This document shows, in pieces, positions 1,776 to 55,775 of a stretch of DNA of 64,000 nucleotides. The translations under genes were made by a program, and so were the position numbers. Positions within the stretch are counted from its first letter, which is position 1. Every line of letters begins with the position of its first letter. The stretch lies in sequence record MZ170040.1; one strand, 5' to 3'. A model generated the notes under the pieces. It saw nothing but the letters and a program-made list of their open reading frames with translations. It was not told the DNA's origin and made no database searches. This stretch comes from Escherichia phage vB_EcoM_FJ1.

Positions 1776-2039
1776 TTATTTTAATTTTCGCCAAATTTTT
1801 ACTGCTTCTCGCCTCGATACTTCTACGGCGCCAAGTTCTATAGCTTTTTGACGACGACTTGCACGTAAGTCATAATGTTTAATGCGTTTATCTTGAAACC
1901 AAGAACGTTTCATTCCTATTGCTTCTGCCATTTCGTGAAGCTCTTCAATATCTCCATCAGTGAACATATGACAATTTTTAGTTGGATGACCGCGAAGTTT
2001 CCATCCATGATTCATTAAAACATCTACGTAAACTGTCAT
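1776..2039 (-). CDS. hypothetical protein (87 aa)
   Basis: ORF track; start overlaps stop of upstream small ORF (ATGA). Confidence 0.6.
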   Translation of the reverse strand: MTVYVDVLMNHGWKLRGHPTKNCHMFTDGDIEELHEMAEAIGMKRSWFQDKRIKHYDLRASRRQKAIELGAVEVSRREAVKIWRKLK

Positions 2040-2185
2040 TGATTCTTCTCCAAATAAGTTTCGATAATTTTCTGGGCGAGATAAACCGCGTTATCTTCAG
2101 TTGCGTCTTCTAAGAAACTTTCAAAACACTCTGAAATTTCTTCTGTATCAATCAACTTTTTTACTTCAATTGGTGTAATTTTCAT
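2036..2185 (-). CDS. hypothetical small protein (~49 aa, MKITPIEVKK...)
   Basis: Hand-translated; not in ORF track (<60 aa); downstream of early promoter, ATGA coupling to next gene. Confidence 0.35.
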   Translation of the reverse strand: MKITPIEVKKLIDTEEISECFESFLEDATEDNAVYLAQKIIETYLEKNQ

Positions 2186-2219
2186 TTTGTTTTCCGTTTA
2201 AGTGTTTGTTTTGATAGTT

Positions 2220-2252
2220 GTATAGTACCATAAAGCTTTATGCTTGTAAACA
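2220..2252 (-). promoter_or_regulatory. T4-type early promoter
   Basis: Same conserved block (TTGATAGTTGTATAGTACCA...GTAAAC), upstream of the small ORF at 2185. Confidence 0.6.
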
Positions 2253-2271
2253 GTTTTGTGAAAAATTTTTG

Positions 2272-2300
2272 AAATAAAAAAGGGAGCCCGAAGGCTCCCT
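2272..2300 (-). terminator. rho-independent terminator
   Basis: Hairpin GGGAGCC-CGAA-GGCTCCC followed by U-run on minus strand, right after the NTase gene stop. Confidence 0.7.
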
Positions 2301-2301
2301 A

Positions 2302-3315
2302 TCATTTATAATAGCTTCGGTGGTTTTCAAGATAAACCTTCTCAAGGAAGTCATCCCAGAAACCCATGTCTACTTTTTGCTGCATACCGTTCTTAGAAGC
2401 TTCAGTAGATGCTGCTTCTACTTGATCGACCACATCTTCCAAAAACTCTTGAACTGTTTTAAATGGATGTTTACCCAACTTCACGTCGAGAATAAATGGA
2501 GCATCTTGGAGTGGATAAACCAAGTCACCAGTTTTGTAAATTTCCAATAGTTGGAGTCCACCACGGCAGGCATGGCTCAGAGCTTTCCAGTCAATGCCTT
2601 CATTGGCTTCGGCCTTACGAGCGCGTTCACCGTATTCAGCATCTAATTTGTTCAGTGACTGCTTAAGCTCAATAAGAGAAAGCGTTGTCTGATATTTACG
2701 ACCCAACACAGTGTAGAACATTTGTGGGCCTGTTTTCTCATGATTATGGAACACCCATTCACAGAATTCGTTTTCTGGAAGACGATGCTTAATATCTTCA
2801 ACTTTAGTACGACGCTGCTTAATAGAACCATCTTCTTGGTAATCAATCCATTGCTCAGGGATTTGATTAACTACTTTCAATACATCACGTAATGCAGCCA
2901 AACGAGAACCCTTGACGCCATATTTAGAAGCTTGCTTACGGACATATCCTAAATAGGATTTCATGTTAGTCGTATAAAAACGAGAACGGTTGTCTTGAAT
3001 AAACTTCCACACATCAGGCAAATCAGATTTAACCACTAGTTCAGGTGGAGTGTGAAGCATATCCAATGCTACGGTTTCACCATCTGCTGCTAATTTAAAG
3101 AAATATTTAAGACTGTATAGTTCATGGTCAATATCATCTTTAGTGTTTTTAGATGATGTGTTGTTAGTGTTTTTACTCATATGCTCTTTAACATTTCCGA
3201 TAAGAATATCGCGAGCAGGAGGAACAAAGATTTCTTTAAAATCTACATCAGATTCTGGGGTAGAAGTTCCATAAAGATGACTACCAAAATAGCTTTTCAT
3301 TACTGTTTTCATCAT
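2302..3315 (-). CDS. Pol-beta-superfamily nucleotidyltransferase-fold protein, unknown function
   Basis: 337 aa; N-terminal YFGSHLYGTSTPESDVDF (GS...DxD) plus later VALDML acidic motif; ATGA overlap with upstream membrane-protein gene; terminator hairpin just downstream. Confidence 0.8.
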   Translation of the reverse strand: MMKTVMKSYFGSHLYGTSTPESDVDFKEIFVPPARDILIGNVKEHMSKNTNNTSSKNTKDDIDHELYSLKYFFKLAADGETVALDMLHTPPELVVKSDLPDVWKFIQDNRSRFYTTNMKSYLGYVRKQASKYGVKGSRLAALRDVLKVVNQIPEQWIDYQEDGSIKQRRTKVEDIKHRLPENEFCEWVFHNHEKTGPQMFYTVLGRKYQTTLSLIELKQSLNKLDAEYGERARKAEANEGIDWKALSHACRGGLQLLEIYKTGDLVYPLQDAPFILDVKLGKHPFKTVQEFLEDVVDQVEAASTEASKNGMQQKVDMGFWDDFLEKVYLENHRSYYK

Positions 3316-3785
3316 TCAGCCTTATATTCAATAACAGGACATACTTTAGCTTTACGAGCTTTTAAAAATTCGACGATAATCGATTTCTTAGGTTGAATAG
3401 GAGGTAAACCTTTATACGCCCTATCAATATTTTCTACGTGTAAAGCATAATCCTTTTTCCATTTATAATCTTTATATTTTTCACGCAGTTGTGCAGGAAT
3501 AACAAATGAACCGATAATAAGTAAAACAAGCAAAATGGCAAGTATAAATGCTGATGGAATAAGAGTCCATAAACTACCAAAAATAAGCCATTTCTGCATG
3601 ATTTCTGCGCAGATAATAGTTAGACCTACGAGTATAGTACATCCGAAAAAAGAAACGAAAAATGTAGGAATAACAATAGACCAAAAATACGCGCACAGTG
3701 TCTTAGGTCGTTGCCATTCATCGTTAAACAATTTGAATAATTTATAGTGCCAAGAGTTTTCATTAATAATCATAATTATAATCAT
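3312..3785 (-). CDS. multi-pass membrane protein (157 aa)
   Basis: Three to four hydrophobic segments; ATGA coupling on both sides. Confidence 0.7.
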   Translation of the reverse strand: MIIIMIINENSWHYKLFKLFNDEWQRPKTLCAYFWSIVIPTFFVSFFGCTILVGLTIICAEIMQKWLIFGSLWTLIPSAFILAILLVLLIIGSFVIPAQLREKYKDYKWKKDYALHVENIDRAYKGLPPIQPKKSIIVEFLKARKAKVCPVIEYKAE

Positions 3786-4303
3786 CCTTTCATTGAAGGC
3801 GTAACGGTTGTTAAATACTTAATCATAGCTTCAGCTTCTGATTTTGATAATGAAATTTCTCCATTGTTTTGACGAATAGAAATAAAATCCGGATGACGGT
3901 CACCACCGGCTTTTAAAACACACATATAAGTATCAGTTTCATCTTCAATATTTGAAATGATTGAAGCAGTTCCACACGAATGTGGTTTTTGATAAATCAA
4001 TACAGCTTTTCTTCCACCATTTGACTGTTCATAAACTTTTAATACATCAAACAAATCACTTCTTTTATCAATAGCTAAAATGTTGTTTTCATCTTCAATG
4101 TTAAATCCTTCGGATACTTCATAAAGTGTCACCCATAAATCACCTATATCGATAGTAGCATTTTCCTTTCCATGACTTTCAAGAGCATGACAAATTTTCT
4201 TGATTTCGTCATAACTCATTTTAATAATATCATCTCCTTGACTAAGAAAGATGTCATTTTTAAATTCAACACGAATTAAACCGCTTCCACTTGAAATAAA
4301 CAT
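3782..4303 (-). CDS. hypothetical protein, paralog of 4310..4852
   Basis: 173 aa; shares GFNIE(D/S)E core and KYL..V.P(S/T)M C-terminus with neighbour. Confidence 0.75.
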   Translation of the reverse strand: MFISSGSGLIRVEFKNDIFLSQGDDIIKMSYDEIKKICHALESHGKENATIDIGDLWVTLYEVSEGFNIEDENNILAIDKRSDLFDVLKVYEQSNGGRKAVLIYQKPHSCGTASIISNIEDETDTYMCVLKAGGDRHPDFISIRQNNGEISLSKSEAEAMIKYLTTVTPSMKG

Positions 4304-4309
4304 ATTTCC

Positions 4310-4852
4310 TCACTTTGAAATCATAGTTGGAATGACAGAATCAAGATAAGTCTTTAACGCAATAGCTTCGTCTTTGGTAAATGTGACAATATGCGCTCGA
4401 AAATCATCAATTTGACGAATAGTTAAGACATCTCCATCTTCATAACATTTTGATACATTTAAAACAGTTTCATCATTCTGATCGCACTGATCGCAAGCGT
4501 TAGTAATAATAGCATTGCAATTTTTAAGCCATTTTAAACTATGTTTTCTTTCATTAGAATAATAAAAATATTTAATGTAAGTTATAAAATTATCCCAATT
4601 ATTAATTGATAAGCATATTGACTCGCTTTCAATGTTAAATCCTGGGCATAAAGAATAGAAATGAATTTTATGCTCATCATTAATGCTTACAATTTTATCA
4701 GTGTAAGGTTTTTCAATTTGGGTTAAATGAATAATTTCGCTAGGCGTAAAATATAGCATATCGTCTTCTTGCGTCAAACGATACATATTATTTACTTTTT
4801 CTATAGCCAATTCACCAAAAAATGAACTAACTTCTAATACTAATCGTTTCAT
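4310..4852 (-). CDS. hypothetical protein, paralog of 3782..4303
   Basis: 180 aa; AAGGA SD; tandem duplicate of downstream gene. Confidence 0.75.
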   Translation of the reverse strand: MKRLVLEVSSFFGELAIEKVNNMYRLTQEDDMLYFTPSEIIHLTQIEKPYTDKIVSINDEHKIHFYSLCPGFNIESESICLSINNWDNFITYIKYFYYSNERKHSLKWLKNCNAIITNACDQCDQNDETVLNVSKCYEDGDVLTIRQIDDFRAHIVTFTKDEAIALKTYLDSVIPTMISK

Positions 4853-4853
4853 A

Positions 4854-5120
4854 TTAATCCTTTTTATTTGCGCTGATTTGTTCTAAAATTTTAGAGTATT
4901 CCTTTGTATCAGATTTACGTACAATTGATACACTATAAGGCATACTATCGGTGTCTTTTATAAAGCGTTCCAAATGACACTCTAACAAAATTTCTGGATT
5001 ATAAATCGTGTACATCAAATTACCTGTTGCTCCACGATATTGGCAGATTTCTACTGATTGAACACCATTCCATAATTTTGTTAAAACTAAGTCACCTACT
5101 TCTAATTTAGGAAAACTCAT
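4854..5120 (-). CDS. hypothetical protein (~88 aa)
   Basis: Track ORF starts at TTG; trimmed to ATG (MSFPKL...) with GGTGA SD. Confidence 0.55.
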   Translation of the reverse strand: MSFPKLEVGDLVLTKLWNGVQSVEICQYRGATGNLMYTIYNPEILLECHLERFIKDTDSMPYSVSIVRKSDTKEYSKILEQISANKKD

Positions 5121-5121
5121 A

Positions 5122-5307
5122 TTATTCACCAATTAAAGTTTCAATATAAGAATCAAGATTTACTTTAGCTTCTTCCATAAGAGTTTTGTATTTAATCTTG
5201 TTAGCATGTCCGGAGAAAGCTGATTCATCAATAATTGTTGATGTATGAACAGCTTTACTATACGTCTCAATTAATTCTCTTAATTTAAAAGCCTGCTCAC
5301 TTGTCAT
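5122..5307 (-). CDS. hypothetical small protein (61 aa)
   Basis: ORF track; ATG; start overlaps stop of an upstream 34-aa ORF. Confidence 0.55.
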   Translation of the reverse strand: MTSEQAFKLRELIETYSKAVHTSTIIDESAFSGHANKIKYKTLMEEAKVNLDSYIETLIGE

Positions 5308-5438
5308 TACATACTCCTTTGAATAATATCAATAATGTTGTTCACCAGATTATAAGTAAACATTGGGTAATTATATTGAATCATCACATACACAACAAAC
5401 AAAACTTTCATTCTCTTCTCCTTGGCAGTTGACAAGAT

Positions 5439-5470
5439 TACTATACCATAACCTTGCCAACTTGTAAACC
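5439..5470 (-). promoter_or_regulatory. T4-type early promoter
   Basis: GTTTACA -35 and TGGTATAGT extended -10 on minus strand, flanked by inverted repeat TTGGCA/TGCCAA. Confidence 0.5.
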
Positions 5471-5471
5471 A

Positions 5472-5645
5472 TTAAATGACGTTTTCAATAAAATTCTGAA
5501 GCTTTGTGTGAGCATCAACCATGATTTTCATTTCTTCTTTGGCGAAAGCTGTACCTCTTTCCCGAGCAGAATACTCATAGTCAGAAACTGCGTTAGCATA
5601 TTCTTCAATTAGTTTCATTAAAAACATCTGCTTTTCAGTTTTCAT
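5472..5645 (-). CDS. hypothetical small protein (~57 aa, MKTEKQMFLMK...)
   Basis: Hand-translated; AGGTGGA SD; not in ORF track; approximate coordinates. Confidence 0.4.
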   Translation of the reverse strand: MKTEKQMFLMKLIEEYANAVSDYEYSARERGTAFAKEEMKIMVDAHTKLQNFIENVI

Positions 5646-5829
5646 TATTCCACCTAATCATTTCAAGATATTGAACTAACTTAGCTTTAGATTTATCCAA
5701 ATCCTTTTTAGCTGCTGCTATACCTTCGTATGAATATCCTTCACAGTGCTCAACTGCTAATTGATATGAATCTATTTCAATATCACGTGCTAATTTAATG
5801 ATTTTTTCAAACTGTTCGCGTGTTAGCAT
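5635..5829 (-). CDS. hypothetical small protein (64 aa)
   Basis: ORF track; part of a tightly packed small-gene array. Confidence 0.55.
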   Translation of the reverse strand: MLTREQFEKIIKLARDIEIDSYQLAVEHCEGYSYEGIAAAKKDLDKSKAKLVQYLEMIRWNNEN

Positions 5830-18530: not shown

Positions 18531-18607
<77 letters not shown>

Positions 18608-18610
18608 TAG

Positions 18611-19276
18611 TTAAAATTTCATTTTTCGACCTTTAAACCATCCTTCTGGAATTGGGTCAGTTTTCTTAATACGTTTAGAAACTTTTTCATCTAATGAATG
18701 AATCCACATCATACCAAATTGGGAATTCTTTTCACCTTTTTGGTGATTATTTTTAGCATGAATTTCTTTCATTTTATTAATAGTTTCAAGAGTATGATGC
18801 TTATTTAAAAATCGGCTATTATTTAAAAATTTTTCTTTGTATTCAGGAGTTGACCACAAACGGTTAAATACATTTGAACCATTTTTACGATATTTTTCTT
18901 GAAGTAAAATATCATTTTTAAAACGTGACTTAAACGATTTAGCTCCTTTTAAACTAGCGTCTTTCTTCTGATTTAGCATCTCAGGAATATTTATATGATC
19001 CCATCCACCTTCACCGCCAAGTTTTAAATTATACACATCAGGTCTATTTAAAAACTCTTCTGTGACAATATTTTTCTCGGCTTCAAGCATAGATTCTTTA
19101 TCATCAAAATACTCTAATATTTCTTTAGAAAAATTTTCTATGCCATACTTATCTTGGGCTCTTTTTAATAATTTACCAGAACCCATATATCCATCATCTA
19201 AATTTTCGGTAGAATGCACACCAATATAAATTTTATTATTAATTTTATTTGTTATTTTATAAAGATAAAAATGCAT
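18611..19276 (-). CDS. segB: GIY-YIG homing endonuclease SegB
   Basis: 221 aa from ATG (MHFYLYKITN...IYIGVHS...GYMGSG); inside tRNA cluster as in T4; track ORF 5' extension overlaps a tRNA and is rejected. Confidence 0.8.
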   Translation of the reverse strand: MHFYLYKITNKINNKIYIGVHSTENLDDGYMGSGKLLKRAQDKYGIENFSKEILEYFDDKESMLEAEKNIVTEEFLNRPDVYNLKLGGEGGWDHINIPEMLNQKKDASLKGAKSFKSRFKNDILLQEKYRKNGSNVFNRLWSTPEYKEKFLNNSRFLNKHHTLETINKMKEIHAKNNHQKGEKNSQFGMMWIHSLDEKVSKRIKKTDPIPEGWFKGRKMKF

Positions 19277-19322
19277 ATCAGTCCCTAATAAAGAACTGAG
19301 CGTCTCACGACGAGTCATAAAT

Positions 19323-19409
19323 TGGTGGGGAGTGGTGGAGTCGAACCACCCGAGTCGCAATGACAATGGATTTACAGTCCACACCGCTACCTCTACGGGA
19401 TAACTCCCC
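19323..19409 (-). tRNA. class-II tRNA, anticodon GUA (tRNA-Tyr) - not part of the T4 set
   Basis: 87 nt; acceptor GGGGAGT/ACTCCCC, T-arm GGTGGTTCGACTCCACC, long variable arm, anticodon loop CTGTAAA; encoded CCA. Confidence 0.6.
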
Positions 19410-19418
19410 TAATTAATT

Positions 19419-19495
19419 TGGTGACCCAGACCAGATTTGAACTGGTAACCTTTCCCTTATGAGGGGACTGCTGCTAACCATTGAGCTACAGGGCC
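19419..19495 (-). tRNA. tRNA-Ile (anticodon CAU, lysidine-type; alternatively Met)
   Basis: Anticodon loop CTCATAA; T-loop TTCAAAT; encoded CCA; position matches T4 tRNA-Ile. Confidence 0.6.
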
Positions 19496-19496
19496 T

Positions 19497-19572
19497 TGGT
19501 GCTGATTGACGGAATCGAACCGCCGACCTTCTCATTACAAGTGAGTTGCTCTACCTACTGAGCTAAATCAGC
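19497..19572 (-). tRNA. tRNA-Thr (anticodon UGU)
   Basis: Acceptor GCTGATT/AATCAGC; anticodon loop CTTGTAA; T-loop GGTTCGATTCC; encoded CCA. Confidence 0.75.
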
Positions 19573-19574
19573 AA

Positions 19575-19661
19575 CGGAGGCGATAGGATTTGAACCTATG
19601 AGTCGCCGGAGCGACTGCCGGTTTTCAAGACCGGTGCATTAAACCACTCTGCCACGCCTCC
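19575..19661 (-). tRNA. tRNA-Ser (anticodon UGA)
   Basis: Class II; starts GGAGGCGTGGCAGAG; anticodon loop CTTGAAA; CCA not encoded. Confidence 0.75.
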
Positions 19662-19663
19662 AG

Positions 19664-19737
19664 TCTCCGTGGCAGGATTTGAACCTACGACATTCTGCTC
19701 CCAAAGCAGACGCTCTACCAAACTGAGCTACACGGAG
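19664..19737 (-). tRNA. tRNA-Pro (anticodon UGG)
   Basis: Acceptor CTCCGTG/CACGGAG; anticodon loop TTTGGGA; T-loop GGTTCAAATCC; CCA not encoded. Confidence 0.75.
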
Positions 19738-19747
19738 TAAATTAAAT

Positions 19748-19821
<74 letters not shown>

Positions 19822-19826
19822 AAATT

Positions 19827-19913
19827 TGGTGCGAGAAGTGGGACTCGAACCCACATGGAAATCATTCCGCAGCATTTTAAGTGCTGTGCCTTTACCAATT
19901 TGACCATTCTCGC
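19827..19913 (-). tRNA. tRNA-Leu (anticodon UAA)
   Basis: Class II; matches T4 tRNA-Leu as recalled (GCGAGAA...CTTAAAA...GGTTCGAGTCC...CCA). Confidence 0.85.
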
Positions 19914-19914
19914 G

Positions 19915-19987
19915 CTGGGAATAAAGGACTCGAACCTTTGCATCCTGGAATCAAAATCCAGTGCCTTACCAACTTGGCTAATTCCCA
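19915..19987 (-). tRNA. tRNA-Gln (anticodon UUG)
   Basis: Acceptor TGGGAAT/ATTCCCA; anticodon loop TTTTGAT; T-loop GGTTCGAGTCC; CCA not encoded. Confidence 0.75.
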
Positions 19988-54770: not shown

Positions 54771-55775
54771 TTAACTTACCAATTCAATCCAAGCCGGACG
54801 AAGTACATCTTGTACCATTTTAACTAATTCCTTTTTAATCAAAGAAGGATTATCCGCTTGAGTTAGAGTAATACCTTCACGAGAAGTTTCTTCCAAAATA
54901 TCTTGAACAGTTAGTCCCATCACCTTTCCAAAATCTTTTGGACCAATTTCGCCAATTTTAGAAATAACGTTATTTACTCGGTTTAGTGTAACGTAACAAG
55001 CTAAAATCCCCACCAATTTGTTATCAGCTTCTGACAGTTCAACTTTAGCTTTAATAGGCTTATCAGACTTTTTCTTTTCACTAAATTTAGAATTCTTGCA
55101 TTTGATGGCTACACGATTGCGATTAGGCAGCCAAGAAGGATAACAAGGTTTCAATACATATCCTTCAGCGGTAAATACTTCGTCTTTGGCTTCAGCTTTC
55201 CAAACACATTTGTTAGCGTCAATTAAACCTGCATTATCTACGGTAAAATTATAAGACGGAACAACAGAATCCAAATCATTTGGCAATTTAATAAGCTCTT
55301 CAAATTTACCGCGACCTAAAAGTGGAGCCATTTTAAATTTAAATGTATTGCAGAATGATTCCATCATATAATCGTCGACATAAGTCACATCACCACTTTC
55401 TGTAGTGACAATAATGTCAAATACATAAAAATCTTTATCACCATAATCAACATTCTTCTGAATGCCAGGTCCAGCGAATTCGCCAAAGACTTGATAAGAC
55501 ACAACCGCTGAGGTTTCCATAATATCTTGTACTGCTTTAATGGAATCAGCGTAATTCTTTAGAATAATTTCATACCCAAAGAAATCTTCAGCAGGAAGAA
55601 TAGGACCAGTACGTTTAGCGCAAGTTACTTTATCGCGCTCAATAATCAACGAGAAATTTGTACCATGAATCTTTTCACGAGCTACCCATTCGCCGCCAGT
55701 CAATCCCAAGCTATAAAGTTTTTCAATAAATTTAGAGTTGTAATGATTTTCAAGACTGCTATACTTTTTAAACAT
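54771..55775 (-). CDS. rnlB: RNA ligase 2
   Basis: 334 aa; nucleotidyl-lysine motif KIHGTN; same length as T4 Rnl2. Confidence 0.9.

Follow-up and report, generated by a model that had tools for sequence, protein, structure and literature searches.

RlaP-family nucleotidyltransferases and their possible part in phage RNA repair

The classic tRNA-repair pathway of phage T4, in which Pnk and Rnl1 act against PrrC, has served for about 30 years as a model of phage–host conflict. Members of the RlaP family of nucleotidyltransferases (NTases) have been proposed as antidotes to RloC and other "smart" ribotoxins that excise a nucleotide (PMC12776372), and a nucleotide-restoration role had been predicted earlier for the RlaPs of jumbo phages (PMC7824862). 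Here we examine a 64,000-nucleotide stretch (the window) of Escherichia phage vB_EcoM_FJ1 (MZ170040.1), in which the last gene of a minus-strand early unit is the ortholog of T4 nrdC.11 and encodes a protein of this family. Our analysis points to a T-even early unit of unrelated accessory genes, a mosaic with independent distributions rather than one functional system, whose last product, NrdC.11, would most likely restore nucleotides at broken tRNA 3′ ends before ligation; we give these two propositions, taken jointly, a probability of roughly 0.65.

Two bacterial RlaPs, PfRlaP and PaRlaP of Pseudomonas, have been characterized, both in a December 2025 preprint that is not peer-reviewed (PMC12776372). 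They add one or two nucleoside monophosphates (also the deoxy forms) to the 3′-OH ends of RNA, and not to DNA or proteins. Addition is template-independent, works best with Mn2+ and favors the 5′ half of a broken-tRNA mimic, and the enzymes raise the aminoacylation of repaired tRNA that is minus one anticodon-loop nucleotide (PMC12776372).

NrdC.11 and the RlaP family

The 337-aa product of the gene is 97.6% identical over 337 residues (tblastn) to T4 NrdC.11 (NP_049709; T4p095), whose gene has the same place, upstream of nrdC.10, and which carries the annotation "nucleotidyltransferase." It matches the Pfam profile RlaP (PF10127, "RNA repair pathway DNA polymerase beta family") over residues 7–135 with a score of 44.1 bits (cut-off, 23 bits; E = 2.6e-11), a profile also matched by all 61 of the diverse NrdC.11 homologs used below, and it matches PHROG 388, "nucleotidyltransferase," at E = 9e-137. 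By hhalign, NrdC.11 and canonical RlaP align with 93% probability (E = 2.6e-7) over 86 columns, which span the NTase core only. NrdC.11 is about 80 residues longer than the bacterial RlaPs, and only Pfam positions 23–142 of 249 are aligned. Judged by sequence, it is a divergent long subfamily of RlaP, and since only the NTase core aligns to the canonical form, the C-terminal domain, and hence the substrate specificity, need not be alike. The initial annotation of this DNA had called the function entirely unassigned and the region a candidate for an undescribed system, but the family is a described one, and T4 NrdC.11 has been placed in it explicitly, in cluster 5 of a sequence similarity network (PMC12776372).

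Homologs of NrdC.11 are found by tblastn in 1517 phage records, among them Escherichia, Klebsiella, Aeromonas, Acinetobacter, Vibrio and Sinorhizobium phages, and in a global protein library NrdC.11-like proteins form 3426 clusters at 50% identity with full-length conservation, 828 of them at E ≤ 1e-30. The label "hypervariable," which had been applied to the whole region, fails for a gene with so many records across many host genera, and nrdC.11 is widely conserved in T4-like phages rather than an island-specific novelty.

Conservation was assessed in an alignment of 61 diverse representatives with 33–55% identity, in which G11, S12, G16, S22, D23, D25, N57, D63, Y132, R231, H248, R251, P268 and K279 are invariant. 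The catalytic motif reads G11-S12-x10-D23-V-D25, with D63 as the third carboxylate. A Pol-beta signature had been read earlier as GS-x9-DVD with a later acidic VALDML. That signature is real and its acidic triad (D23, D25 and D63) is intact in all 61 homologs, but the spacing is x10 and the third carboxylate is D63, which lies on beta-strand 62–68; D85, the aspartate of VALDML, is conserved only at a level of at least 90% and sits in a helix. These observations support the view of the 337-aa protein as an NTase of the Pol-beta type, its acidic triad intact and its C-terminal domain large and helical.

Predicted structure of NrdC.11

An AlphaFold (AF2) model of NrdC.11 made with the 61 diverse representatives has a predicted local distance difference test score (pLDDT) of 93.9 and a predicted template modeling score (pTM) of 0.81. 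It consists of an alpha/beta NTase domain (residues 1–115) and a mixed or helical C-terminal domain with beta-strands at 155–209 and a long terminal helix at 317–336, so that the large helical C-terminal region described from the sequence is also seen in a confident model. D23/D25 and D63 lie on or beside the neighboring strands 24–31 and 62–68. The quality of the prediction was set by the diversity of the alignment; 24 homologs of 78–99% identity gave a pLDDT of 53.7 (NTase domain <50), and the 61 at 33–55% gave 93.9. The PfRlaP crystal structure has an N-terminal NTase domain and a C-terminal helical domain whose terminal helix packs back on the NTase domain (PMC12776372). PfRlaP and PaRlaP have in common with NrdC.11 the Pfam family and the GS...DxD...D motif, and from the model NrdC.11 may also have their arrangement of an NTase plus a helical domain with a long last helix, although by profile its C-terminal domain does not align with theirs.

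Sequence and profile searches of the PDB with NrdC.11, in a copy without the PfRlaP structure, found nothing relevant, and its matches in a viral structure library are phage and giant-virus "nucleotidyltransferases." Its neighbors among solved structures are all distant. The best of them is HalB (PDB 9dbh; 16% identity), considered below with the membrane protein, and the top Foldseek matches are KNTase/ANT(4′) (PDB 1kny) and the uncharacterized NTase-like 3c18, both with E ~5e-3 and a TM score of ~0.3. These two have the same two-domain NTase plus helical architecture, but at 8–10% identity they have no sequence-level relationship to NrdC.11, and the substrates of KNTase are aminoglycosides. 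NrdC.11 might in principle nucleotidylylate something other than RNA, be it a small molecule (cf. KNTase/ANT, LinB, Tam41), a protein by AMPylation (cf. MNT, DrrA) or DNA ends. We think this very unlikely, given that the NrdC.11 sequence belongs to RlaP, that the assayed RlaPs leave DNA and proteins unmodified (PMC12776372) and that the genomic context of the relatives of NrdC.11 is one of RNA repair.

Genomic neighborhoods of NrdC.11 relatives

That context was examined in 80 bacterial and archaeal loci with NrdC.11-like proteins (32–53% identity), whose neighbors were clustered, identified with Pfam and counted within ±6 kb. A canonical RlaP of ~255 aa is present anywhere in the locus in 27 of the 80, and in 25 it lies directly downstream on the same strand (e.g., L031 6001–7727 and L067 3497–7799). 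Pnkp (kinase-phosphatase-ligase) is nearby in 7 loci, RtcB in 10 and TROVE/Ro60 in 3, with at least one of these three in 16. Homologs of NrdC.10, of the membrane protein encoded next to nrdC.11 in the window, of the y05I proteins and of the Tudor protein occur in 0/80. As to the phylogenetic profile that had been proposed as a check, NrdC.11 is widespread in phages, and its recurring cellular partners, in those loci that have one, are RNA-repair genes, never the phage neighbors. In Sinorhizobium phage phiM19 the NrdC.11 homolog lies between two annotated RNA-ligase genes. Some relatives of NrdC.11, like relatives of the bacterial RlaPs, adjoin RNA-ligase or repair genes. The window itself carries a T4-type RNA ligase 2 gene (Rnl2; PF09414 + PF18043) ~50 kb from nrdC.11, which gives this genome a sealing enzyme outside the nrdC.11 operon. 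We also note that the T-even phages have only the long RlaP form in this window, as against the two-NTase pairs of the cellular loci.

The pairing of the long with the canonical form suggests that the two have different jobs. It also bears on a second explanation, in which NrdC.11 tails or repairs RNA 3′ ends but has a target other than the broken anticodon loop, such as tRNA 3′-CCA ends or RNAs marked for stability or decay. Such non-redundancy in 25/80 cellular loci would fit this idea, as would the C-terminal domain of NrdC.11, which is unaligned to canonical RlaP, and the finding that labeling by the bacterial RlaPs extends beyond tRNA fragments to full-length tRNAs and rRNA-sized species, with little NTP specificity (PMC12776372). 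On the other hand, Pnkp, RtcB and Ro60/TROVE as cellular neighbors point to the repair of broken RNA over general tailing, and there is no evidence for any particular other RNA substrate. We regard this explanation as possible but rather unlikely.

The adjacent membrane protein

Directly upstream of nrdC.11 in the window is a gene for a membrane protein of 157 aa (or 153 aa; see below). Two hydrophobic blocks of ~34 residues (~30–63 and ~66–98) are followed by a basic tail of ~55 residues. It had been described as a protein with 3–4 transmembrane segments; its membrane nature stands, and the hydropathy leaves room for 2–4 spans. It has no Pfam match above threshold, and its homologs are found in 891 phage records. 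Of 12 phage loci examined by tblastn, those of T6-type Tequatrovirus, Mosigvirus and Dhakavirus have the gene immediately before nrdC.11. It lies at a distance of 1–3 genes in Acinetobacter and Klebsiella phages and of ~1.7 kb in a Proteus phage, and it is not near nrdC.11 in 6 of the 12 (T4, Aeromonas, Citrobacter, Vibrio, KPN8 and phiM19). Among the 1517 phage records with NrdC.11, at least 626 give no detectable homolog of the membrane protein. This pattern is in keeping with synteny shared by related phages rather than with an obligate pair.

The initial annotation had seen in an NTase with an adjacent membrane protein the architecture of a nucleotide-signaling, abortive or anti-defense module. 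In a CBASS- or Hailong-like pair of this kind, a nucleotide or oligonucleotide signal made by the NTase would gate or regulate the membrane protein or mimic a host signal. The stop/start overlap with nrdC.11 in T6-type Tequatrovirus, Mosigvirus and Dhakavirus is in keeping with such a pair, as are the positions 1–3 genes off in the Acinetobacter and Klebsiella T4-like phages and the basic, cytoplasmic tail. Such overlaps are common in this genome, however, and the membrane gene is missing in the six phage loci (T4 among them) and at least 626 records noted above and in all 80 cellular loci, where the partners of the NTase are RNA-repair genes. PADLOC and NCBIfam scans of seven proteins gave no matches, and neither protein of the proposed pair matches a PADLOC defense model. 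NrdC.11 has no SMODS or CD-NTase Pfam match, and in the Foldseek search with the AlphaFold model no cGAS, CD-NTase or OAS is among its structural matches, the distant KNTase 1kny appearing there instead. We consider a signaling pair of this kind most improbable.

HalB of the Hailong system is a 217-aa tyrosine-primed poly-dA synthase from a bacterial defense operon. By sequence profile and by PADLOC NrdC.11 is not of the HalB family, by PADLOC the membrane protein is not HalA-like (it has no similarity to models of the HalA channel), and the two genes are not conserved as a pair. It is hard to credit that the long NrdC.11-type NTases form a functionally distinct enzyme class, in T-even phages perhaps Hailong-like or anti-Hailong together with the membrane protein (with, e.g., short oligonucleotides acting on a channel) or tagging a non-tRNA substrate. 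In favor of a distinct class are the typical pairing with a canonical RlaP in cellular genomes, the C-terminal domain that does not align to canonical RlaP and the place of HalB as best solved neighbor. The likeness to HalB and the position of the membrane gene next to nrdC.11 lead us to leave a very small residual weight for a role of the signaling type.

A proposed role in tRNA repair

The sections above show which genes these are, to what family NrdC.11 belongs, that its catalytic motif is intact, what fold it is predicted to have and that some of its cellular relatives lie among RNA-repair genes. Homologs and context suggest, beyond this, a substrate and an in vivo role. In the proposed scheme, an RloC-type anticodon nuclease of the host would cut a tRNA and take out a nucleotide. 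NrdC.11, using D23, D25 and D63 with a divalent metal, would then extend the 3′-OH of the 5′ tRNA fragment by one or two nucleotides in a template-independent reaction, and the phage end-healing and sealing enzymes (T4-type Pnk + Rnl1, or Rnl2) could then rebuild the full-length tRNA. NrdC.11 would in this way be a counter-defense accessory to the classic T4 RNA-repair pathway.

Several points weigh against this proposal. The Pfam match is limited to residues 7–135 and the hhalign match to the NTase core, and the helical/beta-rich C-terminal domain may specify another substrate. Pnkp, RtcB or TROVE lies within 6 kb in only 16/80 cellular loci, and in T-even phages nrdC.11 shares no operon with an RNA ligase or kinase and does not belong to an RtcB/RtcA operon. 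The family biochemistry comes from a preprint that is not peer-reviewed and from two Pseudomonas enzymes only, and that preprint itself calls T4 NrdC.11 "of unknown function" (PMC12776372). Finally, the membrane gene abuts nrdC.11 with overlapping stop and start in several Tevenvirinae genera, and a functional link is conceivable.

The transcription unit

The five minus-strand open reading frames (ORFs) that had been listed as an operon are all there, as found by an ORF scan and by reading the minus strand, and they are conserved genes rather than chance ORFs. The transcription unit is larger, however, and holds seven ORFs (Table 1); the two additional ones, the ortholog of MobD.2 and the 61-aa DUF7438 gene, sit between a promoter-like site and the Tudor-like gene that had been taken as the first. 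The evidence supports placing the genes in one promoter-to-terminator unit, from 5468–5440 to 2300–2281. The strong terminator noted earlier at the end of the unit is real, with a stem-loop, a T-run and a folding energy of −17.7 kcal/mol (z = −3.5). Promoter hexamers of the same type as those at the head of the unit are seen again at 2250–2222, 1771–1743 and 69–41, and the first of these, a new early-like promoter, comes after the terminator. Simple, strict patterns for a MotA-box middle promoter and a TATAAATA late promoter found neither on the minus strand of 2000–5700, which is weak evidence.

Table 1 Features of the nrdC.11–mobD.2 unit and its surroundings in the window
Feature	Coordinates	Strand	Basis or remarks
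NrdC.10, 322 aa	478–1446	−	Sub-threshold AAA and STAND-NTPase Pfam matches around P-loop, ~residues 96–125
Small ORF, 66 aa	1504–1704	−	
Early-like promoter	1743–1771	−	TTTACA-17-TACTAT + TG
Small ORF, 87 aa	1776–2039	−	DUF4031
Small ORF, 49 aa	2036–2185	−	
Early-like promoter	2222–2250	−	TTTACA-17-TACTAT + TG
Intrinsic terminator, end of unit	2272–2300	−	8-bp stem (6 G-C pairs) with UUCG loop at 2281–2300, then T-run
NrdC.11 ortholog, 337 aa, RlaP-family Pol-beta NTase	2302–3315	−	97.6% identity to T4; PF10127; phrog_388
Membrane protein, 157 (or 153) aa, phrog_944	3312–3785	−	PHROG 944, E = 6.5e-50; hydropathy
Second y05I-like protein, 173 aa, MobD.1 paralog	3782–4303	−	PF24449, 113.7 bits; PF24448, 82.0 bits
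MobD.1 ortholog, 180 aa, y05I-like two-domain protein	4310–4852	−	PF24449, E = 1.3e-39 (135.3 bits); PF24448, E = 2.2e-23 (82.8 bits)
Phage_tudor protein, 88 aa	4854–5120	−	PF24144, E = 2.3e-40
DUF7438 protein, 61 aa	5122–5307	−	PF24219, E = 1.4e-15; phrog_4859
MobD.2 ortholog, 34 aa, first ORF of unit	5307–5411	−	31/34 residues identical to T4 MobD.2
Early-type sigma-70 promoter-like site, head of unit	5440–5468	−	TTTACA-17-TATAGT + extended TG; 10/12 consensus matches; consensus match only
DUF7438 paralog	5472–5645	−	PF24219
DUF7438 paralog	5635–5829	−	PF24219
Macro-domain protein, 155 aa	8245–8712	−	PF01661, E = 2.9e-6
Nine tRNA genes	18531–19987	−	Arg-tct, Tyr-gta, Met/Ile-cat, Thr, Ser, Pro, Gly, Leu, Gln
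RNA ligase 2 (Rnl2), T4-type	54771–55775	−	PF09414 + PF18043

The junctions within the unit are close. The mobD.2 ortholog has an AAGGAG Shine-Dalgarno sequence upstream, and its stop overlaps the ATG of the 61-aa gene (TAATG). The ATGs at 5120 and 4852 each lie 1 nt past the preceding stop, that of the 61-aa and that of the Tudor-like gene, respectively (TAATATG in both cases), the ATG at 4303 follows the stop of the mobD.1 ortholog after a 6-nt spacer with a GAGG Shine-Dalgarno sequence, and the last two junctions are ATGA overlaps at 3785/3782 and 3315/3312. Two genes have alternative in-frame starts: one at 3773, the start annotated in T6, would give a membrane protein of 153 aa, and one at 3312, the start of T4 NrdC.11, a protein of 336 aa. 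The genes are chained by ATGA and other short junctions as had been read, but such chaining is the norm in this genome; of 89 same-strand neighbor pairs in the window, 51 (57%) have a gap of 10 nt or less and 34 overlap. Tight packing across the window thus gives no information on shared function, and stop/start overlaps were rejected as a sign of a functional operon.

Our reading is that the stretch is probably an early transcription unit, nrdC.11–mobD.2, of a Tequatrovirus that has the arrangement of T6 and RB32, without the mobD homing endonuclease. NrdC.11 is the only ORF of the unit with assignable biochemistry, and the other six (the membrane protein, the two y05I/MobD.1 paralogs, and the Tudor-like, DUF7438 and MobD.2 proteins) have no demonstrated link to it. 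The numbers of phage records with homologs also differ among the genes, with 1517 for NrdC.11, 891 for the membrane protein, 726 for MobD.1-like proteins and 404 for the Tudor protein.

Comparison with T4, T6 and related phages

Escherichia phages slur03, slur08 and slur14 share 99.2% identity with the 3-kb stretch, and T6, like many other genomes of Tequatrovirus, ~96%. Of the 585 phage records that match it, 359 do so over 80% of its length or more, and synteny with T6 and T4 holds. This is Tequatrovirus DNA of an ordinary kind. None of the five genes had been recognized as a T4 core gene, but two of the five are T4 genes, since apart from NrdC.11 the 180-aa protein is 83% identical to T4 MobD.1 (Y05I_BPT4). 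Four of the seven ORFs are without a T4 counterpart.

The idea that the region lies in a variable island held up for the nrdC.11-to-rI segment, which differs among T4, T6 and the window. In T4 the upstream neighbor of nrdC.11 is mobD, an HNH homing endonuclease gene, which stands where the window, like T6 and RB32, has genes for a membrane protein (157 aa) and a second MobD.1 paralog (173 aa); nrdC.11/mobD.1 has been given as the mobD insertion site (PMC2988022). T4 also has one copy of mobD.1 versus two tandem copies in the window, the second of which is present in T6, and between mobD.2 and mobD.1 it has neither the Tudor-like nor the 61-aa DUF7438 gene, both of which the window has. The nrdC.11–mobD.3 block can be deleted in T4 (PMC9825161), which fits accessory roles for its genes.

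Other genes of the unit

The 180-aa and 173-aa proteins are the tandem paralog pair described in the initial annotation. They are 29% identical over their full length (E = 3e-12), and both contain the T4_y05I_N and T4_y05I_C domains, with PF24449 and PF24448 above the Pfam cut-offs, which makes both members of the MobD.1/y05I family. The term "putative transcription factor" for y05I proteins is a Pfam label only. MobD.1-like proteins are found essentially only in enterobacterial T-even relatives. The records with Phage_tudor homologs, by comparison, include non-T4-like Proteus and Klebsiella phages of ~145 kb. Single-sequence searches of the PDB with MobD.1 and the Tudor-like protein found nothing. 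Neither the 88-aa Phage_tudor gene nor the 61-aa DUF7438 gene has a match in the T4 nrdC-tk locus (18 kb, tblastn).

The 61-aa protein is one of three small tandem paralogs (57–64 aa), all DUF7438 (PF24219), the other two of which are encoded beyond the promoter-like site. The trio corresponds to the T4 mobD.2a and mobD.3 neighborhood, and a PHROG "helicase loader" label on one of its members looks like annotation drift.

Surrounding genes

Downstream of the unit, nrdC.10 is syntenic with nrdC.11 in Tevenvirinae and in an Acinetobacter phage. The AAA-like NrdC.10 was rejected as an obligatory partner of NrdC.11, since it is absent nearby in Proteus, Citrobacter, Aeromonas, Vibrio, KPN8 and phiM19 phages and in 80/80 cellular loci. 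Between the two genes the window has three small minus-strand ORFs with early-like promoters ahead of them, and T4 and T6 have nothing at their place. In Klebsiella phage BovinicusUrsus the pair of the 49-aa and the DUF4031 gene is found at another place (L008 9676–10070), and in this respect it behaves like a mobile cassette.

Farther away, the 155-aa Macro-domain protein encoded in the tk–vs region may, from its Pfam match, be an ADP-ribose-processing enzyme. The window has a cluster of nine tRNA genes; T4 has eight and is not known to have one for tRNA-Tyr, so that the Tyr gene of the window may be a difference from T4.

Implications for phage RNA repair

No new system is revealed here; NrdC.11 is a recognized RlaP member, and its neighbors are catalogued T-even accessory genes. 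The question that the gene raises is also already in the literature, namely whether the T4 tRNA-repair pathway has a third enzyme, one that restores the nucleotides cut out by RloC-type nucleases. To that question the present analysis adds modest support for an RNA-repair role, in the invariant catalytic residues, the confident structural model and the cellular neighbors Pnkp, RtcB, Ro60 and, most often, canonical RlaP. If it is true in vivo, nucleotide restoration by NrdC.11 would extend the phage–host conflict model.

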